In this document: one piece after another, positions 19,450 to 38,964 of the stretch
Numbering within the stretch: the first letter of the stretch is position 1
How the letters are laid out: every line of letters starts with the position of its first letter
Source: a virus
Lineage: Duplodnaviria > Caudoviricetes
Direction: 5' to 3' (one strand)
IMG/VR virus record: IMGVR_UViG_3300030380_004437
Span: 1-60,247 of that record
DNA: 60,247 bases
Position numbers and translations under genes: made by a program
The notes under the pieces: generated by a model
The model's database searches: none
What the model was told of the DNA's origin: nothing
What the model saw: only the letters and a program-made list of their open reading frames with translations

Positions 19450-19477
19450 TTTACTTTTAAGTTAATAAGCGTATTAT
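19450..19477 (+). promoter_or_regulatory. Class I promoter (TTTACT-N16-TATTAT)
   Basis: Same architecture as 20064-20091; precedes paralogous gene. Confidence 0.7.
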
Positions 19478-19541
19478 AAACGTATTAGCTTAATTATTAA
19501 CCCTTTAAATTTAGCTAATTTAATTAACTAAAGGGCTTACT

Positions 19542-19745
19542 AAGGTACTTAAAATAGCTACTAAGTATAACTTAAACGCTAAAATAGTACTAGGTAATAC
19601 GGCTAAACTAGGCGAGAAAAACTCGGCTAAGTACAAAAGCTGGGTAGGTAAAACGGTTAAAGAAGTTTTTACTACTGGGCAAGGTACGGTTGATATAACC
19701 TATGCTATTAAAGTGGGCGGTATAAAACCTGTCCCTACCGAATAA
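19542..19745 (+). CDS. Small-domain family paralogue 1, no ATG (AAG at the homologous start position, or ATA 19554)
   Basis: KVLKIATKYNLNAKIVLGNTAKLGEKNSAKYKSWVGKTVKEVFTTGQGTVDITYAIKVGGIKPVPTE*; clearly homologous to 20155-20364; in-frame TAA at 19521; AAAGGG RBS, promoter and hairpin retained. Confidence 0.7.
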   Translation, partial: KVLKIATKYNLNAKIVLGNTAKLGEKNSAKYKSWVGKTVKEVFTTGQGTVDITYAIKVGGIKPVPTE

Positions 19746-19760
19746 AACGGTTTTAGTAAC

Positions 19761-19784
19761 GGCTAGGGGGTAAAACCCCTAGCC
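19761..19784 (+). terminator. Hairpin after paralogue 1
   Basis: GGCTAGGGG-GTAAAA-CCCCTAGCC; weak U-tract. Confidence 0.6.
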
Positions 19785-19810
19785 CTATTACTATATAAAG
19801 AACATACGAG

Positions 19811-19929
19811 CATCCGAACAACCATCTTTCTAAGATCTGCTAGCAGATCTGAATTGCGTGGCACATGCTTCATGTATTGGGGGCAGACGTTTTGATCTTT
19901 GTGTGTGTGTCATGCGATCTGATCTGATG
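19811..19929. repeat. SATS-dense block 1
   Basis: 11 GATC/CATG/CATC/GATG tetramers counted, plus (GT)5. Confidence 0.8.
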
Positions 19930-20063
19930 TGTTATCTACTTTGGGTGGGTGGGTGGTGAGGGAGCCGTATTATACCTTACATTTACTTTGGGGTAAAGCT
20001 TTTGATTTACTTATAACTTTTTATTATACCGTATAGCTAGAACTTATATACTTAACTTTCCGC

Positions 20064-20091
20064 TTTACTTTCATATTTATTAGCGTATTAT
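20064..20091 (+). promoter_or_regulatory. Class I promoter (TTTACT-N16-TATTAT)
   Basis: GCTTTACTTTCATATT is identical to the upstream part of the minus-strand promoter at 20915-20943. Confidence 0.75.
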
Positions 20092-20154
20092 ATACCTAAT
20101 GTTTAGTTATTAACCCTTTAAATTAAACATTTCCGACTAATAAAGGGTACTATA

Positions 20155-20364
20155 ATGGTGATTAAAATTAGTACTAAATACGATCTTAACGCTAAAATAG
20201 TTTTAGGTAGTAATATAGGACGCCTTGGTGAAAAAAACTCAGCTAAATACAAAAGCTGGGCTAATAAAACCGTAGCGGAAATATTCAAAACGGGTCAAGG
20301 ATCTGTTGACATTACCTACGCTATTAAGGTAAAAGGTATTCAAGAAGTACCTTCAGCTAAGTAA
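20155..20364 (+). CDS. Small-domain family paralogue 2
   Basis: RBS AAAGGG, own promoter and terminator; homologous to 19542-19745. Confidence 0.8.
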   Translation: MVIKISTKYDLNAKIVLGSNIGRLGEKNSAKYKSWANKTVAEIFKTGQGSVDITYAIKVKGIQEVPSAK

Positions 20365-20375
20365 GGCTGGGAACT

Positions 20376-20407
20376 GAGGGGGTGTAAAGCCCCCTCTCTT
20401 CTTTTTT
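20376..20407 (+). terminator. Intrinsic terminator
   Basis: GAGGGGG-TGTAAAG-CCCCCTC followed by TCTTCTTTTTT. Confidence 0.8.
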
Positions 20408-20419
20408 ACTACCCACGTC

Positions 20420-20576
20420 GATCCGATCGTGGTACGTGGTATTCTCTCTCTCAATGCGATCTGATCTGAAATGGTTATTGTAGTTGTAGTTGTGGTTGTT
20501 GTAATTATATAGGGGGAAGATGTTTTGATCTTGGGGGCACGGATTTTGATTTGACAATCCTTATGCCGATCCGATC
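20420..20576. repeat. SATS-dense block 2 with (TC)n and (TTGTAG)n-like tracts
   Basis: GATC pairs 5 bp apart at 20420/20425, 20458/20463, 20568/20573; lies between two convergent terminators. Confidence 0.75.
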
Positions 20577-20590
20577 TGAAGCAGGTATAT

Positions 20591-20618
20591 AAGAAGAGGG
20601 GCACTCTTCAGCACCCCT
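20591..20618 (-). terminator. Terminator of paralogue 3
   Basis: Minus strand AGGGGTGCT-GAAG-AGTGCCCCT followed by CTTCTT. Confidence 0.6.
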
Positions 20619-20632
20619 AATCTCATTCCCAG

Positions 20633-20866
20633 TTATTTAAAAGTCAGGAATCCACACTTTAGATCATAGACCAAGTCCGCCATTACTACAAGTCTTGGTT
20701 TAAGATCAAGAGCCTCTTGAGGCGTCTTCCCATTAAGTATAGGTTGACGCTCTGCGTTGTGCACAGCTCTTGGCGTTTTACTAGTTGCCACTAGTTCACG
20801 ATCCATATTTTCACGAACATAAGCGTTATTTATAACGATCGGTTTAGTTAAGTTTTTAGTAGTCAC
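20633..20866 (-). CDS. Small-domain family paralogue 3
   Basis: GTG start with AAGGAGG RBS; HNAER...GKTPQEAL...DLVYDLKCGFL. Confidence 0.75.
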   Translation of the reverse strand: MTTKNLTKPIVINNAYVRENMDRELVATSKTPRAVHNAERQPILNGKTPQEALDLKPRLVVMADLVYDLKCGFLTFK

Positions 20867-20914
20867 AATGACCCTCCTTAATTAATAGCTAAAACCATTT
20901 TTAACTATTTATAT

Positions 20915-20943
20915 AGTATAGCTAAGAACAATATGAAAGTAAA
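20915..20943 (-). promoter_or_regulatory. Class I promoter (TTTACT-N17-TATACT)
   Basis: Read directly; upstream of paralogue 3. Confidence 0.8.
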
Positions 20944-20968
20944 GCTAGATGTAAAGTTATTTAACGAA

Positions 20969-21177
20969 GATCACATCGTGTACTACACGTAGATCACAGT
21001 GCCATGGCACATGGTTCATGGGTATGTGTGTGTGTAACCCAGTTCGGATTGTGATGGGGGAAGATGTTTTGACGATGAACTCTGGACCATGGACCTAGAT
21101 CTGATCTGATTTCCGATCGCATGTGGTTCCTGGACCATGGGATTGTGATCGGGTGCCATGATTTGATGATTGTGATC
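20969..21177. repeat. SATS-dense block 3
   Basis: About 19 SATS tetramers, several at 10-11-bp spacing; GATCTGATCTGAT and (TG)n. Confidence 0.8.
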
Positions 21178-21371
21178 CTATTGCCCTATTGACGATTGTC
21201 CATAATTCATGGTTCTTTGTCCTTTCCTCAAGTATTTTGTGCCTTGTGTCAGAGTCCGTGGTTTCCTGGTTTCTTATATAGGGTCTAGAATACCTGTAAA
21301 TCATACTGCAATTATCTTTCCCATGCTTTATCTGCACCATGCACCACGACCCAAACACCACCCATTCTCAC

Positions 21372-21476
21372 CCTATTACCAAGAAACAGCCAATAGGTCG
21401 CTAATAGGGTAGCCAATAGGTCAAGAAAAGCGATGTACATCAGTGCTTCTAGACTCATGCCTATTAGCGTATTAGC
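21372..21476. repeat. GCYAATAGG iteron-like cluster A
   Basis: Direct copies at 21389, 21400, 21412; inverted copies at 21460 and 21469. Confidence 0.65.
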
Positions 21477-21528
21477 AAATCAGAGATATTTTAAGAAAAA
21501 TGTTTTATAAAATTGGTGAGATAATAAT

Positions 21529-21601
21529 AAGAAAGTGGTGTGAGAGAGTATTAACCCTAACTCCCTCACACCGTCACAGACAATTTGGGAGGGTCTGTGA
21601 C
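21529..21601 (-). terminator. Tandem hairpins ending the early minus-strand cluster
   Basis: GTCACAGAC...GTCTGTGAC (21573-21601) and GGTGTGAG...CTCACACC, followed on the minus strand by CTTTCTT. Confidence 0.6.
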
Positions 21602-21614
21602 TAGCTACTAAAAC

Positions 21615-21815
21615 CTATTCATCTTCCCATATTGGCGTGTTGCCACATAATTTAAATACTTCAACAATGGACTTTTGTTCACCAGTCTCACCGTTAGTAA
21701 GTTTCTCAGTCTCGCCACATGGTCGACAGAACTCAATCCAGTCACCACCCAGCACTAACATATTAGTACCTGACGCAGGACGCCTAGTTTCACAAATGCT
21801 ACAATAATTCGCCAT
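21615..21815 (-). CDS. Small CxxC-CxxC protein
   Basis: CSIC...CRPC; GAGGAGG RBS; class II promoter. Confidence 0.7.
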   Translation of the reverse strand: MANYCSICETRRPASGTNMLVLGGDWIEFCRPCGETEKLTNGETGEQKSIVEVFKLCGNTPIWEDE

Positions 21816-21851
21816 AATTTTTTCCTCCTCTTATAACTAATTTATAAATAT

Positions 21852-21880
21852 AGTATAGGTAAGATCCTAAAAGATGCCTA
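21852..21880 (-). promoter_or_regulatory. Class II promoter TAGG-CATC-N6-GATC-N5-TATACT
   Basis: One of 11 copies of a 29-bp motif, each upstream of an RBS and ATG. Confidence 0.85.
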
Positions 21881-21887
21881 TACTTCT

Positions 21888-22157
21888 CTAAGATTCTTGG
21901 CTATCTTCCGCTATAACATCATCCATGATTTCTTCTAGTTCTCCTGGTCCCACTAAACTATAATAATTAGTTTTCGCAATTACCCAAAAACCACCGAAAA
22001 TATCTGACCACTCTTCAGGATAACCCACTTCTTCAGCTTTAGCTTTATTACCAACGAACACAGCACCATATTTATTTTCAAGATGATTAATTAACCATTT
22101 TATAGGTTTAACCTCTTCATCTGTTTTAAAACTATTTAGTACATCAACAATCACCAT
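21888..22157 (-). CDS. Early hypothetical protein
   Basis: AAGGAGG RBS and own promoter. Confidence 0.7.
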   Translation of the reverse strand: MVIVDVLNSFKTDEEVKPIKWLINHLENKYGAVFVGNKAKAEEVGYPEEWSDIFGGFWVIAKTNYYSLVGPGELEEIMDDVIAEDSQES

Positions 22158-22190
22158 AAGTTCCTCCTTCTATAATTAACTTATTAATAA

Positions 22191-22219
22191 AGTATAGGTA
22201 AGATCTTATAAGATCCCTA
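22191..22219 (-). promoter_or_regulatory. Class II promoter (GATC/GATC)
   Basis: TAGGGATCTTATAAGATCTTACCTATACT. Confidence 0.85.
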
Positions 22220-22226
22220 TAGTTCT

Positions 22227-22526
22227 CTAATGATTTTCGTTATTCTCAAGGTAATGAATTTCCGCATCAAATGAGTAAGTCATTAGCTTATAAAGATCTA
22301 AATCCGTAAACTTACCGTTGATCTTAAACATTATATCATTAGCAAAATCACCAGTAGTAGCACCTTCTGCTTGAACGTAAGTATTATGATCACAAACATA
22401 GAAGTAGATGAAATTACCATTACCATTTACCCTAAGTTCATGAGGGATTTGAAATTTAATTTGAAGAGCTTTAGCTAAATGATATTCATTCGGCTGAAGT
22501 TCTATAAATTTAACATCTTCAGTCAT
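22227..22526 (-). CDS. Early hypothetical protein
   Basis: GGAGG RBS and own promoter. Confidence 0.7.
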   Translation of the reverse strand: MTEDVKFIELQPNEYHLAKALQIKFQIPHELRVNGNGNFIYFYVCDHNTYVQAEGATTGDFANDIMFKINGKFTDLDLYKLMTYSFDAEIHYLENNENH

Positions 22527-22561
22527 AAGTTGATCCTCCGTATTAATTAACTTATTAATAA

Positions 22562-22590
22562 AGTATAGCTAGGATCCTAAAGGATGCCTA
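22562..22590 (-). promoter_or_regulatory. Class II promoter (CATC/GATC)
   Basis: TAGGCATCCTTTAGGATCCTAGCTATACT. Confidence 0.85.
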
Positions 22591-22607
22591 TCTTGATGGC
22601 TATATTC

Positions 22608-23006
22608 TTAAGCACCCCATGCCCACTTACTACCCTCAAGAGGAACCTTGAAGTATTCTGTGAGTGCAGACGCACCTAGCGAACCACCGAGGGATAACGC
22701 TAAGTAAAAATGCATGCCACATTTACTATAAGATACCTGTATGATGCTGTATGAGCCACCGTCAGAGACAGGGAAGTAACAACTATCATAGACAGTATGC
22801 CAAGGGGCTAATTGGTCTTTCATGACAAACTTATAATGTTCATCATCATGACCGTCACACTCACCAAAATGGTAGAGTATTTTTTGATCATCATTGAGAT
22901 GATCCAGTATTACATCAAGAATACTTTGAACTCTTGCCTGTTCGGGGTCTGAGTTATCAAAGACGTCTGGATCTAATACGTCTGATTTACTAATAAGATC
23001 TAACAT
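22608..23006 (-). CDS. Early acidic hypothetical protein
   Basis: GGAGG RBS and own promoter. Confidence 0.7.
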   Translation of the reverse strand: MLDLISKSDVLDPDVFDNSDPEQARVQSILDVILDHLNDDQKILYHFGECDGHDDEHYKFVMKDQLAPWHTVYDSCYFPVSDGGSYSIIQVSYSKCGMHFYLALSLGGSLGASALTEYFKVPLEGSKWAWGA

Positions 23007-23035
23007 ATAATCCTCCGTTTTACTTATTAACTACT

Positions 23036-23064
23036 AGTATATAAAGCATCATAAAGGATGCCTA
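23036..23064 (-). promoter_or_regulatory. Class II promoter (CATC/GATG)
   Basis: TAGGCATCCTTTATGATGCTTTATATACT. Confidence 0.85.
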
Positions 23065-23082
23065 TCTTCCCTCGCTATATTC

Positions 23083-23637
23083 TTACTCAGAAGCCCAGTG
23101 AATCAAGTGGTGTTGATCAATATGATCCACTAAGTAATCAAGACCAAACCCATGAGACAAAAAGCTAAACGGACGCACTGTATCAGTGGTGACTATTCCC
23201 CAGCTGTCAGACGCTATAAAACCTGAGTCTTGTTGATAATACTGATGTTCCAGTAATACATAAACAGTATCATCACGAGTTATCTTCCACTCATGTAGAC
23301 ATTCACTAGCCTCTCGATGATACATTCCACTGAATACATCAACGACTTCTTCTGACAACTTTTTACGGTTCTCAGGAGACAGTTCCAGAACTACACGAGC
23401 ACCTGTTTCCTCACCAAAGCTGGCATACGCTAAAGGTATATCACCAGTAAACTCTTCGGGAGTAAACTTGCCACCGAATGGATCCATAAAGTTCACAAGA
23501 TCTTTTGAATCTTGAGCAAACAAATCCTCGGGACTGATCTCATAATAAGTAAGATCATAAAATTGATTATGATTTTCTCTGATAGCTCGCACCACAGGCT
23601 TCACATAATCAACATAGTTTTTTAAATTATTAGTCAT
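23083..23637 (-). CDS. Early hypothetical protein
   Basis: GGAGG RBS and own promoter. Confidence 0.7.
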   Translation of the reverse strand: MTNNLKNYVDYVKPVVRAIRENHNQFYDLTYYEISPEDLFAQDSKDLVNFMDPFGGKFTPEEFTGDIPLAYASFGEETGARVVLELSPENRKKLSEEVVDVFSGMYHREASECLHEWKITRDDTVYVLLEHQYYQQDSGFIASDSWGIVTTDTVRPFSFLSHGFGLDYLVDHIDQHHLIHWASE

Positions 23638-23666
23638 GTTTCCTCCATTAACTAACTTATAACTAA

Positions 23667-23695
23667 AGTATAAGTAAGATGCTAAGCGATCCCTA
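23667..23695 (-). promoter_or_regulatory. Class II promoter (GATC/CATC)
   Basis: TAGGGATCGCTTAGCATCTTACTTATACT. Confidence 0.85.
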
Positions 23696-23713
23696 GCATC
23701 TTCCTTATAATCA

Positions 23714-23941
23714 TTAACCTATTTCGACTTGGTCAAGAGTAAATCTAGGACCGAGTGACTCTTTGATATGTTGTACTAGTGTAGACCAGTTTTTTACGTC
23801 TTCGCTGGTGATAGTAAAGAAGTCTTCTAAACCATTACCTGCTTCATCTTGATAACCGATGCTGACTACATCATCGAGAGCAAATCTCCCGTAACATTCA
23901 ACACCATCGATTTCTTTATAAAAATTATAATTTACATTCAT
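23714..23941 (-). CDS. Early acidic hypothetical protein
   Basis: GGAGG RBS and own promoter. Confidence 0.7.
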   Translation of the reverse strand: MNVNYNFYKEIDGVECYGRFALDDVVSIGYQDEAGNGLEDFFTITSEDVKNWSTLVQHIKESLGPRFTLDQVEIG

Positions 23942-23975
23942 AATTCCTCCGTTGGTAAGTAAATTAATATAATTA

Positions 23976-24004
23976 AGTATAGGTAAGATGCTAAGCGATG
24001 CCTA
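23976..24004 (-). promoter_or_regulatory. Class II promoter (CATC/CATC)
   Basis: TAGGCATCGCTTAGCATCTTACCTATACT. Confidence 0.85.
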
Positions 24005-24031
24005 ACATCTTCCCTATAATGGTTAGTTAAT

Positions 24032-24244
24032 TTATGTTGCTACAAAGTCTTTATCGATGAGATCATCCGTACCTACTCTTCCCCACAGCTCTAGACCTAA
24101 CCTGATGTAAACAGATTCGAGCTTTGCATCGCCGAGAACTTTAGTATAGACTTGCTCTTCAGGTGTTCCTTCTTTGTAGACCAGGAACCTAGTAGCAGGG
24201 TCGATTGACCAACCCTGCTGTTTAAATCGTTCAACCTCTAGCAT
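24032..24244 (-). CDS. Early hypothetical protein
   Basis: Overlaps the upstream gene end. Confidence 0.6.
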   Translation of the reverse strand: MLEVERFKQQGWSIDPATRFLVYKEGTPEEQVYTKVLGDAKLESVYIRLGLELWGRVGTDDLIDKDFVAT

Positions 24245-24455
24245 CTTTCACCTTATTTTCTATGATGTCAATATCATCTAATAGGTCAGACACTCTGTTA
24301 ATACTACTAAGGTCAGACACTGGTAAGTCCCAGCGTTGTACAATAGTCCTAAAATTATCACGAGCATGTAATATGTCGGATATTATTTCTTTTAAATCAG
24401 TACACACTTGTTGCTGTGCATCTTGATTTAAACCTTCTTTAAACTCTTCGTTCAT
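24231..24455 (-). CDS. Early hypothetical protein
   Basis: GGAGG RBS and own promoter. Confidence 0.7.
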   Translation of the reverse strand: MNEEFKEGLNQDAQQQVCTDLKEIISDILHARDNFRTIVQRWDLPVSDLSSINRVSDLLDDIDIIENKVKDARG

Positions 24456-24488
24456 ACTTCCTCCGTTGTACGTTAAGTTAATAATTAA

Positions 24489-24517
24489 AGTATAGTAAAC
24501 ATCATTTTAGATGCCTA
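24489..24517 (-). promoter_or_regulatory. Class II promoter (CATC/GATG)
   Basis: TAGGCATCTAAAATGATGTTTACTATACT; its TAG is the stop codon of the upstream gene. Confidence 0.85.
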
Positions 24518-24859
24518 TACTTCGTCGCTATCTTCTTTTAGGTAAAATTCTACAGTACCGAAGGCACACGTGCCACCGTCATAGACTACTTCCTCACGAG
24601 ACTCAACACATAAGAATTTATACTTATTAGTCTCAAAGATAAGTAGAGTCTTGTTGTCGACACCACCGTGCGGACCGTTATATTCAAACTTACCTAGTTC
24701 ATGAGACATAGTGAGAGTGGCGAGTTCTCGGAGTGCTTCAATGAAACACCCACCGTCCTCGCCATCATAAGCATAAGTTCCGTTATAGCTTAAAGCCGTA
24801 TCACGAGCGAAACATACATCGACATGTTCCTCTAACTGTTCTACATTATCAAACCACAT
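24515..24859 (-). CDS. Early acidic hypothetical protein
   Basis: ORF track; follows the RHH-like gene. Confidence 0.65.
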   Translation of the reverse strand: MWFDNVEQLEEHVDVCFARDTALSYNGTYAYDGEDGGCFIEALRELATLTMSHELGKFEYNGPHGGVDNKTLLIFETNKYKFLCVESREEVVYDGGTCAFGTVEFYLKEDSDEV

Positions 24860-24862
24860 GAC

Positions 24863-25030
24863 TTACCCGTTATTCTCAGTATCAAACCATGCTTTAGTTG
24901 CTGCTCTAATAGCATTCGTTCTACCTATCTTAGCACCTGTTCGTTGGCTAAGCATTTCTGCGATATAGTCTACGTCCTCAGCTAAATCTTCGGGTAGTGC
25001 TACATTTATTCGCTTATCTTGATTATTCAT
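24863..25030 (-). CDS. Ribbon-helix-helix-like DNA-binding protein (55 aa)
   Basis: Not in track. MNNQDKRINVALPEDLAEDVDYIAEMLSQRTGAKIGRTNAIRAATKAWF...; AAGGAG RBS and own promoter. Confidence 0.6.
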   Translation of the reverse strand: MNNQDKRINVALPEDLAEDVDYIAEMLSQRTGAKIGRTNAIRAATKAWFDTENNG

Positions 25031-25056
25031 GATAACTCCTTTATTTAATATAATTA

Positions 25057-25085
25057 AGTATAGTAAGGATCATATACAATCCCTA
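25057..25085 (-). promoter_or_regulatory. Class II promoter (GATT/GATC)
   Basis: TAGGGATTGTATATGATCCTTACTATACT. Confidence 0.8.
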
Positions 25086-25165
25086 TCTTCTTCCTAAATT
25101 TTTTTAAGCTAAATCCAGCCCTTTCGAGCGTAGCAATTTAAAAGGTATAGTTAGGTATTATAAAT

Positions 25166-25199
25166 AAAGAAAGGGCTTAATCGAGCGTTGATTAAGCCC
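25166..25199 (-). terminator. Intrinsic terminator
   Basis: GGGCTTAATC...GATTAAGCCC with minus-strand TTTCTTT tail. Confidence 0.75.
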
Positions 25200-25225
25200 C
25201 ATTCGTACTTGAAGAGTTTAGCTAC

Positions 25226-25627
25226 CTAGTAGCCGTTTAAGAGTCTTTCTAAAGCCATGTCGAATTTAGTAGACATTTTGACTTTATCACCTGTATCTTT
25301 TTCTAACTCACGCACTTCAAAGAGATGTTCGCTTCTTTGACCATCAGTAAGTTTAAGTAGAACAGATTGATATTGCCTATTATTTTCTTCTGACACTTCA
25401 GTGAGTGGGTATAAGTTTACAAGACCATAAGTAAGTTTAGCTAAATCATAACCACTATCTATATAACCCCTTTTGATAAGATGTTCCCGTAAGTTCCTCA
25501 ACTCACTGGCTCTTTCTAAATCTACCTCTGAGTCACGGTGCCAATAATAACTATTAACTTCTTCCGCTACTTTCTGCAAGATACCGTGTACAGCGTTTAT
25601 GTCTGATTGATTATCAAATACTATCAT
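25226..25627 (-). CDS. Early hypothetical protein
   Basis: ATGA coupling to upstream small ORF. Confidence 0.65.
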   Translation of the reverse strand: MIVFDNQSDINAVHGILQKVAEEVNSYYWHRDSEVDLERASELRNLREHLIKRGYIDSGYDLAKLTYGLVNLYPLTEVSEENNRQYQSVLLKLTDGQRSEHLFEVRELEKDTGDKVKMSTKFDMALERLLNGY

Positions 25628-25755
25628 AGCACTTGCCCCAGTTCATGTAGCTCGTTAAGGAGTTTCTTTTGAGCAGTCACTGCTTTTTGTATTTTCTTGA
25701 GGTTTTTACGATTACCTACATGCTCTATATGTTTGATTATAGTTTCTGTTTTCAT
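25624..25755 (-). CDS. Small hypothetical protein (43 aa, MKTETIIKHIEHVG...)
   Basis: GGAG RBS, class II promoter, coupled to next gene. Confidence 0.6.
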   Translation of the reverse strand: MKTETIIKHIEHVGNRKNLKKIQKAVTAQKKLLNELHELGQVL

Positions 25756-25784
25756 ATTATCTCCATAATAAAATTAATATATAA

Positions 25785-25813
25785 AGTATAGTAGGGATCA
25801 CTAACGATCCCTA
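25785..25813 (-). promoter_or_regulatory. Class II promoter (GATC/GATC)
   Basis: TAGGGATCGTTAGTGATCCCTACTATACT. Confidence 0.85.
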
Positions 25814-25822
25814 CCATGATCA

Positions 25823-26026
25823 CTACTTAGTATCTTTCCACGCTATGAATATTTTAAGAGCTTCGCCTTTTGACAAGTCAAAACATTCTCTTAACATCAT
25901 AGGAGCTTGAAACATATTAGAACCACCTGAGTCCATCATGTCGTCCAAAAAGTCGTAGTACTCTTGATTTTGATCAAAGTGATCTTTATCATCAGCTTTG
26001 ATACTTTCATATTTATCTTTACTCAT
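25823..26026 (-). CDS. Small acidic hypothetical protein
   Basis: FLDDMMDSGGSNMFQAP..LRECFDLSKGEA. Confidence 0.65.
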   Translation of the reverse strand: MSKDKYESIKADDKDHFDQNQEYYDFLDDMMDSGGSNMFQAPMMLRECFDLSKGEALKIFIAWKDTK

Positions 26027-26027
26027 A

Positions 26028-26438
26028 TTACCACCATGCCTCCATTACGCAATTATGTTCTGCTGCCACCTCGAACAAAGTTGCTAGGTCTTTGATTTCT
26101 TTAACCCTAAAATCATAAGTGCCTCTACTACTAGGTAAAGACCACTCAAACCTATGGTCATCAGGTAAATCATTTAACCCGTTATCTTCTATATACTCTC
26201 GCAAGAGTAACCCATACACTCGTAACTCATCAGTTTGTATAACTTCGTCTTGATCTAAATGCCAGAAAGCTGGACTTGACGCAGTTAAATGAGCTACGAA
26301 CTCCTCATAGCAACCACCTCTAAACGAGCCATTACCATGACCACTAAACAAACCTCCTACGAGGGTAAGATTATCGAGACGGTCGTCTTTAAATACTTCG
26401 TCACGATTACCTTTCATTACATAACAATCTAAACCCAT
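26028..26438 (-). CDS. MGLD-start hypothetical protein
   Basis: MGLDCY...FRG...WW C-terminus; GGAGG RBS. Confidence 0.7.
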   Translation of the reverse strand: MGLDCYVMKGNRDEVFKDDRLDNLTLVGGLFSGHGNGSFRGGCYEEFVAHLTASSPAFWHLDQDEVIQTDELRVYGLLLREYIEDNGLNDLPDDHRFEWSLPSSRGTYDFRVKEIKDLATLFEVAAEHNCVMEAWW

Positions 26439-26447
26439 GGGTACCTC

Positions 26448-26708
26448 CTACCATTGTTGGCGAACAATCATTGAATGTTCTTTGTTATCTACTATTTTAT
26501 AAGCAAAGATGTCAGTACACTTTTTATCATTGTACACAGCATCCTTTGCACCTTGGTGAGTAAGTGACGACATGTATAAACTCCAAGGTTCATCATCTCT
26601 TGCGTCAATACCCTTATATTGCCTGAAGACCCTAAACCTGAGTACAGTTTCTACATACTCAGTCTCTGGGTCATGTTCAGGGACTTCTATATCATCTATA
26701 TTGATCAT
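26448..26708 (-). CDS. Early hypothetical protein
   Basis: ORF track, tightly packed. Confidence 0.6.
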   Translation of the reverse strand: MINIDDIEVPEHDPETEYVETVLRFRVFRQYKGIDARDDEPWSLYMSSLTHQGAKDAVYNDKKCTDIFAYKIVDNKEHSMIVRQQW

Positions 26709-26709
26709 A

Positions 26710-26838
26710 TTACTTACCTATATATTTGATATCTTTTTTAGGGATCACCTGATAAGCTCCCTTATTATACGCAGGGGCAATAGTGTATTGACTACTGATG
26801 CGCCTACGCTCCTCAGGTGTTAAAGTTTTATTTTTCAT
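26710..26838 (-). CDS. Small protein with TIAPAYNKGAYQVI motif (42 aa)
   Basis: Not in track; GGAG RBS and class II promoter. Confidence 0.6.
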   Translation of the reverse strand: MKNKTLTPEERRRISSQYTIAPAYNKGAYQVIPKKDIKYIGK

Positions 26839-26870
26839 ATATTCTCCGTGTATAAAAAATTAATATATAA

Positions 26871-26899
26871 AGTATATTAATGATCAAGTTTGATGCCTA
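26871..26899 (-). promoter_or_regulatory. Class II promoter (CATC/GATC), inside the 3' end of the upstream gene
   Basis: TAGGCATCAAACTTGATCATTAATATACT. Confidence 0.85.
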
Positions 26900-27140
26900 G
26901 GATATTTCCCTTTGATCTTTTACAACCTTTACAAGTATGCACCACTGATTCTTTATTCCTATCTATAACTGTATAACCACCAACATATTTTATTTTAATT
27001 ACATGAGTCGAGTGATCCATGCTTTCAAGAAAACCGTGTTGGTATTTTGTGCCCATGCGTTTATGACCCTGATACTCACCAAAGTTCACTTCCTGTTTAC
27101 ACAGGTCACACCATTTAAAATTATGTTTTTCTGCTGACAT
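26877..27140 (-). CDS. CxxC-CxxC hypothetical protein
   Basis: CDLC...CKGC; AGGAG RBS. Confidence 0.65.
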   Translation of the reverse strand: MSAEKHNFKWCDLCKQEVNFGEYQGHKRMGTKYQHGFLESMDHSTHVIKIKYVGGYTVIDRNKESVVHTCKGCKRSKGNILGIKLDH

Positions 27141-27251
27141 TTAATTCTCCTATAAGTAGAGTGCTGGACGAGGGAGGAGAATCATCTTTTTAGGGAGAGA
27201 TCGCCCAGCACCTACAAGTAATATAACTCAACGAGTCATATACGACTAGAT

Positions 27252-27569
27252 TTATTTTGAAAGTTTTTCTACTATCTCGATAAATCCACGGTCGACATCG
27301 TATTTGATGTCTTGGTAAGCGTACCTTCGTGACTCAAGTGCTTCACGTACAGTCTTCTTATTGAAGTCTAGTACACGCTCTTGATTATGTGTCACTCTAG
27401 GTATTTTACCAGTTGTGACTATAAAGTGGTCAGGATTATACTTTCCTGGCTTTATAACCTTTTCACCAGACTTAGCAATCTCTGCTAGGTTGGTTGCGAC
27501 AGCTAACTTTATGTTAGCTACCTTTTTAGTTGTGGCAGGTTTAACTACCTTCTTAACACTTTTTTTCAT
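27252..27569 (-). CDS. Small-domain family paralogue 4 with basic N-terminal tail
   Basis: KYNPD...HNQER...KKTVREAL...DIKYDVDRGFIEI; AGGAG RBS. Confidence 0.75.
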   Translation of the reverse strand: MKKSVKKVVKPATTKKVANIKLAVATNLAEIAKSGEKVIKPGKYNPDHFIVTTGKIPRVTHNQERVLDFNKKTVREALESRRYAYQDIKYDVDRGFIEIVEKLSK

Positions 27570-27611
27570 ATCTGCTCCTAAGTTTTGAGTTATTAATTAA
27601 AAAGTTAAGTA

Positions 27612-27640
27612 AGCATAACTTACTAGATATAGAAAGTAAA
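27612..27640 (-). promoter_or_regulatory. Class I promoter (TTTACT-N17-TATGCT)
   Basis: Upstream of paralogue 4; preceded by a class II-like AAGG-CATC-N7-GATC element at 27645-27663. Confidence 0.75.
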
Positions 27641-27751
27641 GCTCGATCATATTATGATGCCTTTCTTGTTAAATTAAATATATCTCTAGATTATATACCA
27701 AGACAATAAGACACATTCCCATGATAAGTATAATAAGATCTCTTATATCTA

Positions 27752-27901
27752 TCATCTTCCTTGTCCTCTATATGCTTTATAAGACCTTCTCTTATTTTTA
27801 TTCATAGTCGAGAAACCTACATTGCCTCGACCTTGAGAAGTTTTCTTACCACGTGATCCGCACTTCGGCACATGGGCAGTAGTTCCTAATCTTATTTTCA
27901 T
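27752..27901 (-). CDS. Small basic protein (49 aa, ...KKTSQGRG...MNKNKRRSYKAYRGQGR)
   Basis: ATGA coupling; not in track. Confidence 0.6.
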   Translation of the reverse strand: MKIRLGTTAHVPKCGSRGKKTSQGRGNVGFSTMNKNKRRSYKAYRGQGR

Positions 27902-28407
27902 AAGTATTTACTCCTTATGGTATCAGTAGCTGTACATTTTTCACATAGAAACAAGCCGTGCTCTTTGACTACGGCTGGTGCGTCACAATTATCACAGTAC
28001 ATTTGGGTATTGTTTATATAGTCCTCAATACGTTTTACAAGTATTTTAGCACGTTTATTACGACCCCACGCTCCAGTTTTAACAGGTAAATCTAAAGCTT
28101 TACATATCTCAGCGAGAAATTCCATATTATTTACGGCTATAACTTCGTCCATAGGTTTATCATCTTTACCATATATTTGACCGTTAAACAACGCAAACAT
28201 ATCGAGAGGATTACTTTTATGAATTTTAGTGACATATTCGACAAACCTATCAGGGACACCTACCTTCCTAAAAAAGCTAGGGTGGAAAAAGCCGTAGCCA
28301 TCAGCTACGACACACTCCTGTGCCCAGTCATAGATAGATCGTTTTACATCACGAGCCATAAAATAATATTCAACATCATCACTAGTATTTAAGTTTTTAT
28401 ATTTCAT
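27898..28407 (-). CDS. Hypothetical protein with C-terminal CxxC-CxxC
   Basis: AAGGAG RBS; CDNC...CEKC. Confidence 0.65.
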   Translation of the reverse strand: MKYKNLNTSDDVEYYFMARDVKRSIYDWAQECVVADGYGFFHPSFFRKVGVPDRFVEYVTKIHKSNPLDMFALFNGQIYGKDDKPMDEVIAVNNMEFLAEICKALDLPVKTGAWGRNKRAKILVKRIEDYINNTQMYCDNCDAPAVVKEHGLFLCEKCTATDTIRSKYL

Positions 28408-28463
28408 ATTACTCCTTATTTATAAACCTTTATTTTAGTAAACATCAAAGTGAGATAAAAGCA

Positions 28464-28652
28464 TCAATCCTTTTTCTTCATTTTTCTTTTATATTCATCA
28501 CGCATTATCATTGTTATTTCTTTCATGTTTTCAGTAGTATAGGGTGCATCGCCTAAGAATTCATAAGACATATCAGGTAGTTCATTAGAGCCTTTGTATT
28601 TGTTGTTCCAGTTTTCCTTTTTATTTTTGTTCCAGTTCTTCCTTTTACTCAT
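28464..28652 (-). CDS. Small basic hypothetical protein
   Basis: ORF track. Confidence 0.5.
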   Translation of the reverse strand: MSKRKNWNKNKKENWNNKYKGSNELPDMSYEFLGDAPYTTENMKEITMIMRDEYKRKMKKKD

Positions 28653-28790
28653 TGGTTGACCTGCTGTGTAAGATTAACTGCCTTATAAAAACCCTTAAAA
28701 ATATAAAGGGTGCGTCTACGCAGTGTCACACACATCTTACTTTGGTTCTCACTCCAGCAGGCAAAAGCAGAGGAGGATTGCAGACGCTTC

Positions 28791-29342
28791 TTAAAAAACA
28801 TTCTTATACCTCTCGTATAGTTCTTCTCTTTCGTTTACCAATTGTTTGTAATCTTTTACTTTGAAATTATCATAGTATTTTGTTTTTTGTAGCTTTCTGC
28901 TTTCATGTACTAAATCACTAAGCTTCTGGACAAAGATCATAGGATACGGTCCAACTTCCTCGTCATTGTATGCATTAGTACCGAACAGCTCAATACCTTC
29001 TTCGGTATCATCAGGGTGGCTACCCATTATAAATATGTCTTTTTTCCATAAGATACATTGATTTTGTTTAGTTATGAAATTATTAAACTCAGTAAATGAC
29101 CTTTCGTTAAAGGTACTGACGAGTATAAGAATATCCTCTTTATGATGATCAAAAGTAGGAATAAATTTTTCGTAGAAAGACTCAGAAAATAAACTTGTAT
29201 TTATTTCTATTCTAGCCCTGTCCTCATGTAATGCTTTAGCAGCATATGGGCACACAGGCAACCAATCTAATAACTCGTTCGGTTTAGCTAAAAATTCGTA
29301 AACCCAACAATGTATATCTTTTTCAATCTTCGATGATAACAT
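28791..29342 (-). CDS. DUF1415-like hypothetical protein
   Basis: WV.EFL.KPN...LPVCPYA.KA...SHPD...PYPMIFVQ. Confidence 0.5.
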   Translation of the reverse strand: MLSSKIEKDIHCWVYEFLAKPNELLDWLPVCPYAAKALHEDRARIEINTSLFSESFYEKFIPTFDHHKEDILILVSTFNERSFTEFNNFITKQNQCILWKKDIFIMGSHPDDTEEGIELFGTNAYNDEEVGPYPMIFVQKLSDLVHESRKLQKTKYYDNFKVKDYKQLVNEREELYERYKNVF

Positions 29343-29604
29343 CCTCGAGTACTCCTTCCTTATTTACTCGTACACTGTGTGAGAAACCTTTTTCTTCAGG
29401 TTTATGCTCTGTCATAGCTTTAGAAAACTCGGGACTTATATAGCCCCTATTTTCTAATTTTTGGTTATTTTGTATTACTTGTGCTATGCGTTTAGCATAA
29501 CTATTGGGGTCAGCTATAAATTGGTAAGACTCTTGATTACCTTGAGAGTCCCAACCTGTTTCAGTATAACCTTCCTCTGTGACTTTAAATTTAAAATATG
29601 TCAT
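29323..29604 (-). CDS. Early hypothetical protein
   Basis: GGAGG RBS and own promoter. Confidence 0.65.
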   Translation of the reverse strand: MTYFKFKVTEEGYTETGWDSQGNQESYQFIADPNSYAKRIAQVIQNNQKLENRGYISPEFSKAMTEHKPEEKGFSHSVRVNKEGVLEDVIIED

Positions 29605-29633
29605 AAGTTCCTCCGTTTAATTATATTTAATTA

Positions 29634-29662
29634 AGTATAGCTAGGATGTATTATCATCACTA
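29634..29662 (-). promoter_or_regulatory. Class II promoter variant (TAGT-GATG/CATC) inside the terS 3' end
   Basis: TAGTGATGATAATACATCCTAGCTATACT. Confidence 0.75.
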
Positions 29663-30159
29663 GCATTTTTCGTTATTATCCTTTGCTCCTCTTCTTCTAG
29701 TTCTTCAGGCTCCACTTCTATTATCTTGCCAGCAGGTAATACACCACCTGTATCATAATATAGTTGCTTCATACGTTCAAGCACTTCTTCTTTTGACATG
29801 GTATCTACTCTGTTTACAGTAAGTTCACTTCTGTTTACATATAGACCTGCAGCTTTACCACGAGCCACCTCTGCTGTTACTGCTGCAGAGAAAGCGTTAT
29901 TACGCATAGCACCGTCACGAATATCTTTTAAATCCTTTAAATGAGTTCCTAAACTAAGTTCTGCCTTATCTGCAGCTTTTTCTTGTAACTCACCTATTCT
30001 CTTTTGAACTAATGGATTATCTTTACTCGTTAGCACTGTACCAGCTTTCCCTGCATTCTTCTCGCTATACCCAGCGTGTTTTGCAGCATCTTTTTTACTC
30101 ATGCCTTTAGCGACATTTTGAGCAAACTTTTCTTGTTTTGGTGTTAGCTTATCCGCCAT
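29641..30159 (-). CDS. terS: Terminase small subunit
   Basis: LTPKQEKFAQNVAKGMSKKDAAKHAGYSEK...ARGKAAGLY pattern. Confidence 0.75.
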   Translation of the reverse strand: MADKLTPKQEKFAQNVAKGMSKKDAAKHAGYSEKNAGKAGTVLTSKDNPLVQKRIGELQEKAADKAELSLGTHLKDLKDIRDGAMRNNAFSAAVTAEVARGKAAGLYVNRSELTVNRVDTMSKEEVLERMKQLYYDTGGVLPAGKIIEVEPEELEEEEQRIITKNASDDNTS

Positions 30160-30380
30160 ACTCTAAACTGTGTCATACCATCTTCAAATACTTTTCTGGT
30201 GGTAAACTTTTTATCGTTTCTTCTACAGTATTGACTTAAAGCCACTCTCATTTTTTGAACTAGTGTTGGCTCAAAAACAACTGCATAACTGTCACCAATG
30301 TCCATCTTATGGTAATTATACTTGTTATTTCTCGGACCATCATAATTTTCAGGTATGGGTACATTCTTTTCAAAGTCCAT
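30144..30380 (-). CDS. Small putative DNA-binding protein (start likely MDFEKNVPIP)
   Basis: EKNVPIP...KY....MDIGDS...FTTR...RVWR motif common in phages. Confidence 0.55.
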   Translation of the reverse strand: MDFEKNVPIPENYDGPRNNKYNYHKMDIGDSYAVVFEPTLVQKMRVALSQYCRRNDKKFTTRKVFEDGMTQFRVWRIS

Positions 30381-30381
30381 A

Positions 30382-30711
30382 CTATGCCTCAACTATGTCA
30401 AGTTTTTCCCAGCTGTTCCAGTCAACATCAATAATAGTTCTTTCCTGACCTGTTCCAGGAATATATATTGACGCTCTAATATGTGGAGCAACTTTTTCAC
30501 CTTGAGCATGCTCATGTATCATAAGGGCAGTCATAGGAAACTTAACCTCATTAATATCCATGTGCATTTTTTCTAGCTCTTTAATTAAGAAAGGTTTGAG
30601 TTTAGTTTCATCGAGTTGTCGATTATACTCGTTCTCTCTACCCTTTTTAATTATATTTTGCAGCTGTTTAAAGGTTGCTACTTTACCTTTTAGAGACATC
30701 GCTCTAGCCAT
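30382..30711 (-). CDS. Hypothetical protein
   Basis: Tightly packed ORF. Confidence 0.6.
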   Translation of the reverse strand: MARAMSLKGKVATFKQLQNIIKKGRENEYNRQLDETKLKPFLIKELEKMHMDINEVKFPMTALMIHEHAQGEKVAPHIRASIYIPGTGQERTIIDVDWNSWEKLDIVEA

Positions 30712-30712
30712 A

Positions 30713-31273
30713 TTACACCTCTTCTGCGTATTTGGATTTTACGTCATACTTTATATCACCTAGTTTTAGATCACTGTGTTTTTCTAACAACTCAGCAACG
30801 GTTAGTTCACCAGTGTAATAAAGTTGTCTGGTTTTATTTTTATCAGATGAAGGAACTTTATCAGTAGCTTTCACCTTACTCTCCATGTTAATGCTTGACA
30901 CACGAACCACTTTCTTCTGCACAGGTTTCCTAAACGTAGGTTTCTTTACTACGTTTGAGTGAAACGCTACAGAGTGTGGGTCAAAGTCAGAGTCATTAGG
31001 CTCTTTAGCCAGTGGTAGAAGTAATTTATAGAGTTTTCTGCATGCGTCTTGTTTATCTTTGTACTTAAACTTTTTCAAGTTATGGCACTCAATAATTTTA
31101 TCTAGATGTTCCACAGTAAACCATGAAGGATAGGCAAATTTATTAGGGTCACCTAATATAAGTGAGCCACCTCTAATTCTACCTGACTTTACACTGTTCA
31201 CACGTACTACTCTTTTGTAAGTATTACTTATTGGTGTATCTAGAACAAATACTATAGCTTCTTCGTCTAACAT
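30713..31273 (-). CDS. Two-domain protein; C-terminus is small-domain family paralogue 5
   Basis: KNKTR...ELTVAELL...GDIKYDVKSKY. Confidence 0.7.
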   Translation of the reverse strand: MLDEEAIVFVLDTPISNTYKRVVRVNSVKSGRIRGGSLILGDPNKFAYPSWFTVEHLDKIIECHNLKKFKYKDKQDACRKLYKLLLPLAKEPNDSDFDPHSVAFHSNVVKKPTFRKPVQKKVVRVSSINMESKVKATDKVPSSDKNKTRQLYYTGELTVAELLEKHSDLKLGDIKYDVKSKYAEEV

Positions 31274-31294
31274 AATTACTTAAAATAAAAGCTA

Positions 31295-31323
31295 AGCATA
31301 TATAACAATAAGTTAAAAGTAAA
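31295..31323 (-). promoter_or_regulatory. Class I promoter (TTTACT-N17-TATGCT)
   Basis: Upstream of paralogue 5. Confidence 0.75.
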
Positions 31324-31353
31324 GGATAATGTAAAATTCTTGTTAAAAAAATT

Positions 31354-31644
31354 TTAGTGAAGACTGTCTTCTTCGTCTCTAAAATCAGTTCCGAAATGAT
31401 AACTCAAAGCAAGATCCATTGCGGAATGCATCACCTCTCTTAAATTATCTTCTTCAAATACATGACCACTTGGTACAGTGGTTTCAAAAAAATCTATAGC
31501 TGATTGAACAGCAGCAAATAAAAATGCTGCAGGCACCACGCTATCTGGTGCTTCTATATTTTCTGATATGTGTTTTGACTCTTCGACAAGAAGCCGAGCT
31601 AACTCTTCAGTTAGCTCAGACATCTCGTCGAAAGTCATAGCCAT
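31354..31644 (-). CDS. Acidic hypothetical protein
   Basis: TAATG coupled. Confidence 0.6.
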   Translation of the reverse strand: MAMTFDEMSELTEELARLLVEESKHISENIEAPDSVVPAAFLFAAVQSAIDFFETTVPSGHVFEEDNLREVMHSAMDLALSYHFGTDFRDEEDSLH

Positions 31645-37138: not shown

Positions 37139-38188
37139 TTATTTTATTCTTCTAGATAGCCATCTAAAGCAAGCTTCCATCCAATCATCAGCTTTACAAT
37201 GTTGTATTTCTATAAGTGCTTCTTCCTTACTCTCCTCTTTAGAGAGATACCAAGCATCTTGTATAGGTACTGCGACGTCAGTGAAAAATGGATCTTTGAA
37301 TTCCATTTGCTGAAAAGGTTTTCTAGTAAAAAACATAATTAAGTCTGCTTCCCAATCACGAAAGTCTACACTTACCATTGGATAGGGATTTACTTCATCT
37401 AGTTTATACGGATTGTGATTAATTAATAGCTTTATTGTGTAATAATCAAAAGAGTCTATTTGTAGTAATTTTTCTCTCATAGGCTCATATACATTTAAGT
37501 ACGCATGATAATTATTACTCACTTGATAATACTTACCCATTCTTATACCTGTTGCTGCAGCTACGAACTCATGTAACATTGACATGTGTACCACGTTTGC
37601 TCCATATGCACCCCAGATAATATCATTTGACCTATTTGATACTGTCATATCGAGACGAGGACTGTAGCCGTCTATGTGTACAGTTTTAAAGTATATAGTC
37701 GTATTACAGGGTACGTCAGCTCCATCTCGCCCTAAATCGCCCACAGCGTCCCACATTTGTAGGACACAGCGTCTATCGTAAGGGTCGTGTTTAAGTCTAT
37801 CAATAATAATTCTTACTTGGTCTTTACCAGCAAAATCTTTAAATATAGGGTCTTTGAAATAACTTCTCCATCTCCAGCCATACGCTCCCCACAATGTTTC
37901 ACCATCATCACTATATCTACTCATACCTTTATTGTAGTACTCCATGGTAGCTAAGTCATTAAAACCAGCCAGCATCCATAAACCTTCCATAAAATGGAAA
38001 AAGGGGTTAGCGTCTCTATCTGGGTCAAATAAAACTCTCTCGCTAGGGTTAGCATAAACTGTAGTAACTGGTTCTTCTACAGTGATGACTTTACCGTTTC
38101 TAGTATTTTCTATATGACCATTCGAGTCAAGTAAATCCATACCTCTTAAAAAGGCATCGTTTACATTTCTACAGTTTAATGTGTGCAT
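37139..38188 (-). CDS. Thymidylate synthase-fold dUMP hydroxymethylase (5-hmdU synthesis)
   Basis: Catalytic DVPCN; RSNDIIWGAYGAN (Asn implies dUMP specificity); NPFFHFMEGLWMLAG and GAYGWRWR as in YuA/M6-type enzymes; clustered with a 5-hmdU DNA kinase. Confidence 0.8.
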   Translation of the reverse strand: MHTLNCRNVNDAFLRGMDLLDSNGHIENTRNGKVITVEEPVTTVYANPSERVLFDPDRDANPFFHFMEGLWMLAGFNDLATMEYYNKGMSRYSDDGETLWGAYGWRWRSYFKDPIFKDFAGKDQVRIIIDRLKHDPYDRRCVLQMWDAVGDLGRDGADVPCNTTIYFKTVHIDGYSPRLDMTVSNRSNDIIWGAYGANVVHMSMLHEFVAAATGIRMGKYYQVSNNYHAYLNVYEPMREKLLQIDSFDYYTIKLLINHNPYKLDEVNPYPMVSVDFRDWEADLIMFFTRKPFQQMEFKDPFFTDVAVPIQDAWYLSKEESKEEALIEIQHCKADDWMEACFRWLSRRIK

Positions 38189-38964
38189 TATTCTCCTATT
38201 CCTTCTTTATATGCTTTTTTCCAACCTATGATTACATCCTTACGAGGTAATCCGTTCCAAGCAGTTTTAGTTTGTTTCTCTACTACCTTAACGCATGTAG
38301 GGTGTAAAGAGTGTAATCTTTCAGCACCTTCATTATGAACATCAATAGTTCTCCACTCACTACAACCACCGTCAGCGTTAGATGATTTTTGACCTTGTGC
38401 ATAATAAAAACTTACCTTACATGCTTTACCTTTTCTCAATAGTTGTAAAGCTATATCAAAATCTTCCATTACCCTAGTCCTGCCCCACTCTATGTCATCA
38501 GGAAACTCGTTTAAGTTATAAGCGAGTACTCTCATGTATCGAGTATTTTCTACAGATAAATCTTCTACCCTATTATTACCTTCCCTAGCACTTACACCCA
38601 CGTGGGCATAACCTTGACTAAGCCACTCGTCTAATAAACCAAACATAGCAGGATACTCATCTGACTCTAAGTATCGTAAGTGCCAGTCGGTAGGGCTTTT
38701 ACGAATGTAAAAACGTAAATCATCATCTAGCATAACTATATGGGGGTCATCACTATGCTCTATAATATATTTTCGTTTAGCCCCTATGCCTATACAGTCC
38801 TCTGGGACTACCATTTTAGGTGTGTTTTGATATTTAGTGTACAGGTGTTGCTCATCATGATCAATAACTAATGTTACATCACCATTAGCTTGCATCCATT
38901 GGGGAAACCATTTTAAAGTTTCTTGATTAGTGGGTCTACCACGAGTAGGAATATATATTTTCAT
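38188..38964 (-). CDS. GT-A glycosyltransferase, TET-associated (TAGT)/JGT-like
   Basis: IYIPTRGR, MLDDD (DxD), EDFDIALQLL, GGCS motifs. Confidence 0.75.
   Translation of the reverse strand: MKIYIPTRGRPTNQETLKWFPQWMQANGDVTLVIDHDEQHLYTKYQNTPKMVVPEDCIGIGAKRKYIIEHSDDPHIVMLDDDLRFYIRKSPTDWHLRYLESDEYPAMFGLLDEWLSQGYAHVGVSAREGNNRVEDLSVENTRYMRVLAYNLNEFPDDIEWGRTRVMEDFDIALQLLRKGKACKVSFYYAQGQKSSNADGGCSEWRTIDVHNEGAERLHSLHPTCVKVVEKQTKTAWNGLPRKDVIIGWKKAYKEGIGE

Follow-up and report, generated by a model that had tools for sequence, protein, structure and literature searches.

The window analysed here, the 60,247-bp viral record IMGVR_UViG_3300030380_004437 (Caudoviricetes), comprises a whole viral genome and raises the question of what is encoded by five small open reading frames (ORFs) located between positions 19,542 and 31,273. 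An initial annotation had regarded these ORFs as a five-member family, each member lying behind a TTTACT promoter, and had proposed their products as readers or shields of hypermodified thymine. Our data lead us to favour, with moderate confidence, a more general answer: the ORFs would encode small, basic proteins of a new winged-helix-like family, most likely DNA binders, each with a promoter of its own.

The five ORFs belong to one family

All five ORFs are present in the genome, two on the plus strand (19542 and 20155) and three on the minus strand (20633, 27252 and, with its C-terminus, 30713; Table 1). BLASTP comparison related 20633 to 27252 (E 2e-11) and 27252 to the C-terminus of 30713 (E 2e-4); matches between the plus-strand pair and the other members were not significant. 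When a hidden Markov model (HMM) built from the three minus-strand members was run against the 753 six-frame ORFs, both plus-strand ORFs came out as the best non-self matches, with E 0.0012 and 0.0067 as compared to E 0.48 for the runner-up. A profile of 28 sequences, A3, whose rows stem from the phage window and from unnamed metagenomic sequences with no eukaryote-labelled row among them, matched the genome exactly five times; four of the five window members are rows of A3, so that the informative part of this result is that no further matches appeared. A metagenomic member, P0036, joins features of both subtypes. On sequence grounds, the five ORFs are thus confirmed as one real family. The motif by which they had been recognized stood up in part: taken literally as a regular expression, it matches three of the five members and nothing in 200 shuffled genomes, whereas 20633 (12-residue gap) and 30713 (8-residue gap) each require one residue more than it allows.

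The family would be previously undescribed. None of the five proteins has a Pfam match above the cut-off, nor has the domain in any of the 28 aligned members, where only HNH/HNH-type families on the fused N-terminus of one protein (P0034) exceeded it. The best PHROG match of the five proteins is a family of unknown function (E 0.0078), and the A3 HMM reached no better than E 0.19 against PDB sequences.

The domain is modelled as a divergent winged helix

AlphaFold2, supplied with the family alignment, modelled residues 40-105 of p27252 as a compact domain (pLDDT, predicted local distance difference test, ~95) comprising strand 49-52, helix 60-69, short strand 72-73, helix 74-79, helix 85-94 and strand 97-100. 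The same modelled fold was obtained for residues 131-186 of p30713 (pLDDT ~90). For both domain models the best VIA alignments were with winged-helix domains (Z 5.3-6.6, root-mean-square deviation (rmsd) 2.3-3.9 Å, 54-66 residues), all Z values staying below 8, a range for which the tool itself allows that a match may be a mere common arrangement. Among these matches were the winged helix (WH) of PriA (6dgd_A 114-180; Z 5.7, rmsd 2.3, 57 aligned) and FAM91A1 (Z 6.6, rmsd 3.9, 66 aligned), in addition to GATOR1, the MetAP2 insert, RRE, MarR, MecI, ScpB and Z-alpha. The models therefore weakly point to a winged-helix-like fold, with Z scores too low for assignment to a subfamily. That is, the structure prediction proposed in the initial annotation delivered a confident domain of winged-helix-like appearance, but its structural matches are weak.

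Like PriA WH, MarR, MecI, ScpB and Z-alpha, the predicted domain places three helices on a small sheet within ~60 residues. It differs from the classic winged helix in that, instead of the usual two-strand wing, its C-terminal strand is paired with an additional N-terminal strand, and from the winged helix-turn-helix domains compared in that its helix 3 bears a conserved D-I-[KR]-Y-D motif; similarity to Pfam winged-helix families at the sequence level is absent. The N-terminal domain of the long form (residues 1-106) gave no structural match, having barely been probed since the C-terminal domain filled the match lists.

Several points weigh against a DNA-binding winged helix. Besides the low Z scores, Foldseek found no match to either domain model in PDB at E<=0.001. 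Two aspartates (D-I-K/R-Y-D) are among the best conserved positions of the presumed recognition helix, an unusual feature in a helix that contacts DNA. One of the five ORFs, 19542, may not be translated at all, and the promoter counts given below are not independent of each other. Finally, winged helices also bind proteins or peptides, and RRE, ESCRT-II and RPA32C are among the structural matches. Together with GATOR1/SEA and FAM91A1, the latter belong to the best structural neighbours of the domain, and the conserved helix-3 motif is partly acidic, as might be expected if the domain bound not DNA but a protein partner such as host RNA polymerase, a phage enzyme or a defence protein, for which it might act as an adaptor. 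However, the uniformly basic isoelectric points (pI), the basic tails, the fusions to HNH and SAP domains and the tandem arrays with basic linkers described in the following make such a role very unlikely in our view.

Charge, tails and fusions point to DNA or chromatin binding

As the initial annotation had stated, the proteins are small, basic and present in multiple copies, with pI values of 9.4-10.0 for all five. N-terminal tails rich in lysine, alanine, threonine and proline are found in p27252 and many of its relatives. In relatives the domain is fused to an HNH endonuclease (P0034; HNH E 8e-7), occurs in three copies together with a SAP domain (P0115; E 4e-6) or occurs in four copies (P0015). 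In the dinoflagellate Durusdinium trenchii (named according to NCBI), four proteins contain three copies each, separated by extremely basic linkers; they match A3 with 66-72 bits (E ~1e-14 for a database of 1.84 billion sequences) and represent the only named cellular source of homologs. Charge, tails, fusions and tandem arrays all point to binding of DNA or chromatin, although none of them is proof.

This organization is reminiscent of the linker histones H1/H5, which consist of a winged-helix globular domain and unstructured lysine/alanine-rich tails. The likeness lies in the winged-helix-like domain with its K/A-rich tails, in the tandem arrays with very basic linkers in the dinoflagellate and in the SAP domain of P0115. 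On the other hand, we saw no similarity to H1/H5 in sequence and none among the ranked structural matches; the proteins of the phage are also of far smaller size, and a long tail is missing from three of them. We infer that the five ORFs encode non-enzymatic proteins whose core is a divergent winged-helix-like domain (~60 residues, in the order strand, helix, short strand, helix, helix, strand), in some cases extended by a lysine/alanine-rich tail. In the infected cell, these proteins would bind to double-stranded DNA in an architectural or regulatory capacity.

The eukaryote-type proteins carry one to four domain copies and comprise P0037, P0101, P0113 and P0114 from D. trenchii as well as P0115, P0116, P0015 and P0039 from unnamed sources. 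The D. trenchii genes occur as several paralogs on contigs of 166-179 kb. P0116 (594 aa) has a single C-terminal copy following ~500 residues devoid of a Pfam match; the idea that its N-terminus is a relative of the glycosyltransferase TAGT was rejected, as it shows no similarity to the TAGT of the window and no Pfam match.

Each member lies behind a conserved promoter motif

The TTTACT promoter-like site claimed for each member was recovered in all five cases: a -35-like TTTACT(TT) and a -10-like TA(T/A)nnT, spaced by 16 or 17 nt in the manner of sigma-70-type promoters, precede every family gene (Table 1) and are kept in relatives. Searched with a loose regular expression, the motif is present within 150 nt upstream of 5/5 family genes as compared to 5/86 other crudely called genes, three of which resemble real starts of transcription units (19280-, 45563- and 45701+); the bare TTTACT hexamer is mildly over-represented in the genome (116 observed versus 90 expected). 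Across 43 related loci, which include many near-identical contigs and hence do not provide independent counts, small members had the motif upstream in 50 of 57 cases and long forms in 6 of 21, as compared to 48 of 665 for the remaining ORFs. Each gene would accordingly form its own predicted transcription unit behind a sigma-70-like TTTACT/TAnnnT promoter.

A private promoter for each small member might also suggest that the proteins regulate transcription in a sequence-specific manner, as winged-helix repressors or activators of temporal gene classes or of their own TTTACT promoters, with paralogs that diverged in specificity. Regulators of the MarR, MecI and ArsR types typically have such a winged-helix-like fold and are present among the structural matches, and the maintenance of several paralogs per genome (three in each of four complete relatives) is in agreement with this idea. 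In addition, TTTAC(T) is often repeated in the promoters of small members in relatives, with two or three copies at a spacing of ~11-12 nt (such as TTTACTTTACTTTACTTCTAACTATAAT) that could be operator-like. However, the latter repeats may be plain -35 elements, and the lineage has no palindromic operator in common, palindromic class II promoters being restricted to the close relatives of the window. Moreover, the highly basic tandem-repeat forms of the dinoflagellate and the lysine-rich tails look architectural rather than operator-specific. Overall, we regard a dedicated regulatory role as doubtful.

The class II promoter-like motif of the initial annotation does exist: TAGGCATC..17..TATACT occurs at six minus-strand sites between 21850 and 26899. 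Apart from the window, only its close relatives L001 and L002 have it, whereas more distant family-bearing genomes do not. Several of these sites (TAGGCATC-N-GAT(G/C)...TATACT) contain an internal inverted repeat, GCATC N6 GATGC, which extends over the -35 element and the spacer. The claim that the family is expressed first was not borne out. Metatranscriptome contigs from four runs cover positions 18000-34000 at low and patchy depth (~5-10, with DNA carry-over possible), from which no start, strand or ranking can be derived, and a gene for the small terminase subunit lies amid the supposed early block. A spike at 20472-20503, where 31-mer contigs reached thousands-fold depth, was discarded as GTTGT-rich low-complexity sequence of other organisms rather than expression.

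The family accompanies one version of a thymine-hypermodification cassette

The portal protein of the window is ~50% identical to those of the pelagiphages HTVC023P and HTVC027P, of 023Pt_psg01 and DSL-LC04 and of the roseophages CRP-901/902, which is consistent with an HTVC023P-type marine podophage; a near-identical isolate was not found, as megablast of positions 19200-31400 against 50,697 phage records gave no match. In support of the initial annotation, the genome carries hypermodification genes, namely a thymidylate synthase (TS)-like gene, a glycosyltransferase (TAGT) and an HMUDK_hel/aGPT-Pplase1-type gene, which make up a thymidine-hypermodification cassette (Table 1). The phage DNA thus probably contains thymidines derived from 5-hydroxymethyldeoxyuridine (5-hmdU), which are possibly glycosylated. 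HMUDK_hel homologs have been named aG/PT-PPlase1 by GenBank annotators and in PMC9599517, which also assigns the cassette to the whole of clades V, VIII and IX of HTVC023P-type phages; most likely, the window belongs to one of these clades.

Given this setting, the domain could be a dedicated reader or shield of hypermodified, possibly glycosylated thymine derived from 5-hydroxymethyluracil (5-hmU), which marks, protects or organizes the phage's own DNA. Within the lineage, the distribution fits this idea. HMUDK_hel is present in all 10 family-bearing contigs of at least 26 kb and in 5 of 14 family-bearing fragments of 13-24 kb, and the four complete relatives (G001, G002, G003 and G005; three family copies each) have both HMUDK_hel and TAGT. 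The five nearest isolates (HTVC023P, HTVC027P, 023Pt_psg01, DSL-LC04 and CRP-902) and 19 portal-related fragments lack both the family and HMUDK_hel. However, this pattern may reflect shared ancestry, as the cassette marks whole clades (PMC9599517).

The family as a whole is rare: when a profile was run against 1.84 billion representatives, it yielded 41 matches at E<=0.001, a few of which are repeat-protein artefacts. A word-indexed search gave 64 marine metagenomic proteins of near length, none annotated, and none of greater length, the latter being weak evidence. Using a single protein and the sub-alignment A4 as queries, we found 39 loci in IMG/VR with members related to A4. In contrast to what a reader of modified thymine would lead one to expect, tblastn with p27252 and P0010 detected nothing in 50,697 phage records, and the family is missing from all five other HMUDK_hel-positive isolates examined, i.e. 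M6, FP1, RHph_TM26, Simon and phiRSL1, the last of which has TAGT as well. Thus, the predicted co-occurrence with hmdU genes held in the family's own lineage and in one further phage described below, but not across phages. TAGT is present in 6/6 family-bearing complete genomes and missing from four of the five family-less HMUDK_hel phages (M6, FP1, RHph_TM26 and Simon).

The further phage, PhiJL001, is a marine siphovirus of alphaproteobacteria that belongs to the M6/YuA family and is unrelated to the lineage of the window. Its uncharacterised protein gp18 (AAT69494.1) was recovered by Foldseek against viral models (prob 0.99) and aligned by hhalign to the family domain (prob 87.6%, E 3.5e-6) and, over 112 columns, to the long form (prob 92%, E 6.4e-7). 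The gp18 gene overlaps by 17 nt with the start of gp19, which encodes HMUDK_hel (E 5e-47), in a cassette that also comprises a TS resembling deoxyuridine monophosphate (dUMP) hydroxymethylases and a TAGT sharing 44% identity with that of the window. Accordingly, gp18 represents a distant long-form homolog encoded in a related hypermodification cassette. It differs in lacking the N-terminal beta region of the 186-aa long form and in lying immediately upstream of HMUDK_hel, from which the family copies of the window are 7-19 kb away. No other family member was recognized in PhiJL001, where a dedicated A3 search was not made, and a gp18 search of viral contigs returned PhiJL001 itself only. Taken together, the family goes with one version of the cassette, which includes a glycosyltransferase, in two marine phage morphotypes that are unrelated to each other, and is no general companion of the hmdU pathway.

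By tblastn, the helical N-terminal part of gp18 (residues 13-71, KKFSDRATAISRVW; L052 11832-12287) matches sequences of the Pseudomonas phages Epa5, which is HMUDK_hel-positive, Epa43 and Epa19 and of Ralstonia phage RsoM2USA (E 2e-4 to 6e-3); a 'KFKDK..A....W' helix resembling that of gp18 is conserved in the long form of the window. The notion that the family is an analogue of the terminase small subunit (TerS) was dropped, because gp13 of FP1, a 'terminase small subunit' at the position of gp18, is unrelated to the family and the window has its own Terminase_2 gene (29641-30159).

Small modules reading modified bases have precedents. The base-J-binding domain of JBP1 is a small helical module of this kind. 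Winged helices can also sense DNA modification, as exemplified by DpnI-type sensors of N6-methyladenine (6mA; PMC11037411). The family, found in the genomic company of TS-like, HMUDK_hel and TAGT genes, has no sequence similarity to either, and neither was among the best 50 matches listed in four PDB searches, which is no exclusion. The named cellular homologs come from a dinoflagellate, a group whose nuclear DNA is rich in 5-hmU (PMC11071213), although they represent a single named eukaryotic source. Lineage co-occurrence, adjacency of gp18 to HMUDK_hel and the dinoflagellate homologs are suggestive but non-independent supports, and we regard recognition of modified thymine as a tentative possibility. 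An even bolder scenario, which we consider unlikely, is that a reader of 5-hydroxymethyluracil-derived bases moved together with TS, HMUDK_hel and TAGT between HTVC023P-type podophages and the PhiJL001 siphovirus and was recruited, by way of tandem arrays, basic linkers and a SAP domain, into the chromatin of dinoflagellates, in whose genomes 5-hmU is uniquely abundant.

Tandem duplication and genomic neighbourhood

The 19542 and 20155 genes, together with their promoters and leaders, form a tandem duplication (window 19380-20600) with units 613-616 bp apart that are 70-76% identical; the related locus L054 has a single copy of this plus-strand gene unit, unlike the two of the window. ORF 19542 has no ATG, GTG or TTG start, an AAG being found at 19542 where its paralog has ATG, and an ATA at 19554 where L054 has ATG. 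It is possibly a decaying duplicate or is started at ATA 19554. The description of the family as expanded is therefore justified to a modest extent: the window has five copies as compared to three in relatives, but this results partly from recent tandem duplication and includes one copy without a normal start. In the plus-strand 5' leaders, the conserved CCCTTTA...TAAAGGG pairing is no more stable than in shuffled sequences (z 0.96, -0.07 and 0.46); the hairpin in the 20633 leader alone stands out (z -2.7). Rfam gave no match on positions 18000-33000.

Table 1. Positions of the family members, their promoter-like sites and the hypermodification genes in the window
Feature	Position	Strand	Details
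Family member	19542..19745	+	67 codons; paralog of 20155 (73% identity); frame open from 19524
Family member	20155..20364	+	69 aa, pI 9.9; second copy of 616-bp tandem duplication
Family member	20633..20866	-	77 aa; GTG start preceded by AAGGAGG ribosome-binding site
Family member	27252..27569	-	105 aa; K/A-rich basic N-terminal tail ~1-40, predicted domain ~40-105 (pLDDT ~95)
Long-form member	30713..31273	-	186 aa; conserved N-terminal domain 1-106 and C-terminal family domain 119-186 (DNA 30716-30919)
Promoter-like site	19450..19477	+	TTTACT-16-TATTAT, upstream of 19542
Promoter-like site	20064..20091	+	TTTACT-16-TATTAT, upstream of 20155
Promoter-like site	20915..20943	-	TTTACT-17-TATACT, upstream of 20633
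Promoter-like site	27612..27640	-	TTTACT-17-TATGCT, upstream of 27252
Promoter-like site	31295..31323	-	TTTACT-17-TATGCT, upstream of 30713
Thymine-hypermodification cassette	37139..39821	-	TS-like, TAGT and HMUDK_hel; co-occurs with the five-ORF family
Thymidylate-synthase-like	37139-38188	-	PF00303, E 1.1e-22
TAGT glycosyltransferase	38188-38964	-	PF20691, E 3.8e-23
HMUDK_hel	38961-39821	-	PF18723, E 6.5e-46

The minus strand holds 85 of the 90 crudely called genes. At 19300-21200, between the two gene blocks, which are convergent or divergent, lies a cluster of short repeats: 31-mers of the GGGGGnAGAnGTTTTGAT type occur four times (19869, 20502, 21046 and 21140), ATGCGATCTGATCTGA twice (19912 and 20454) and TGGGTGGGTGGG twice (19312 and 19942). 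Motifs similar to these are found in L054, and the cluster might mark an origin or a region involved in packaging or regulation. Next to it, a 287-aa protein (18330-19193, minus strand) with a TTTACT promoter-like site upstream (19280-) shows a sub-threshold match to ART-PolyVal ADP-ribosyltransferases (E 0.009).

The Terminase_2 small-subunit gene (minus strand, E 1.1e-10) lies amid small 'early-looking' genes, three genes downstream of p30713 and ~12 kb from the gene for the large terminase subunit (16436-17953). A cytidylyltransferase-like gene (33842-34264, minus strand) and a 2-oxoglutarate (2OG)-Fe(II) oxygenase gene (44844-45425, minus strand) flank the replication/hypermodification module and may be part of the base-modification pathway. 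Divergent TTTACT promoter-like sites, 45563(-) and 45701(+), are located at 45536-45739. The -10-like TATGCT of the plus-strand site ends right before ATG 45730 of an SNF2-family helicase gene, and the latter may therefore start at a second ATG, 45739, or be leaderless.

Implications

For neither the hypermodified thymidine of phage DNA nor the 5-hmU of dinoflagellate chromatin do we know of a protein that recognizes it specifically, and a limited text search of the literature likewise revealed none. The family described here provides a concrete, small and easily expressed candidate for recognition of modified thymine. If the scenario linking phages and dinoflagellates were true, phages and a eukaryote would share a reader domain for 5-hmU-derived bases, the first of its kind. 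Even if its members are plain DNA binders, they add a new domain family to the abundant HTVC023P-type phages of the ocean and display a conserved architecture in which members have private promoters. In the dinoflagellate nucleus, where DVNPs and HU-like proteins represent basic DNA-binding classes, the family may then constitute a third possible class related to viruses or bacteria.

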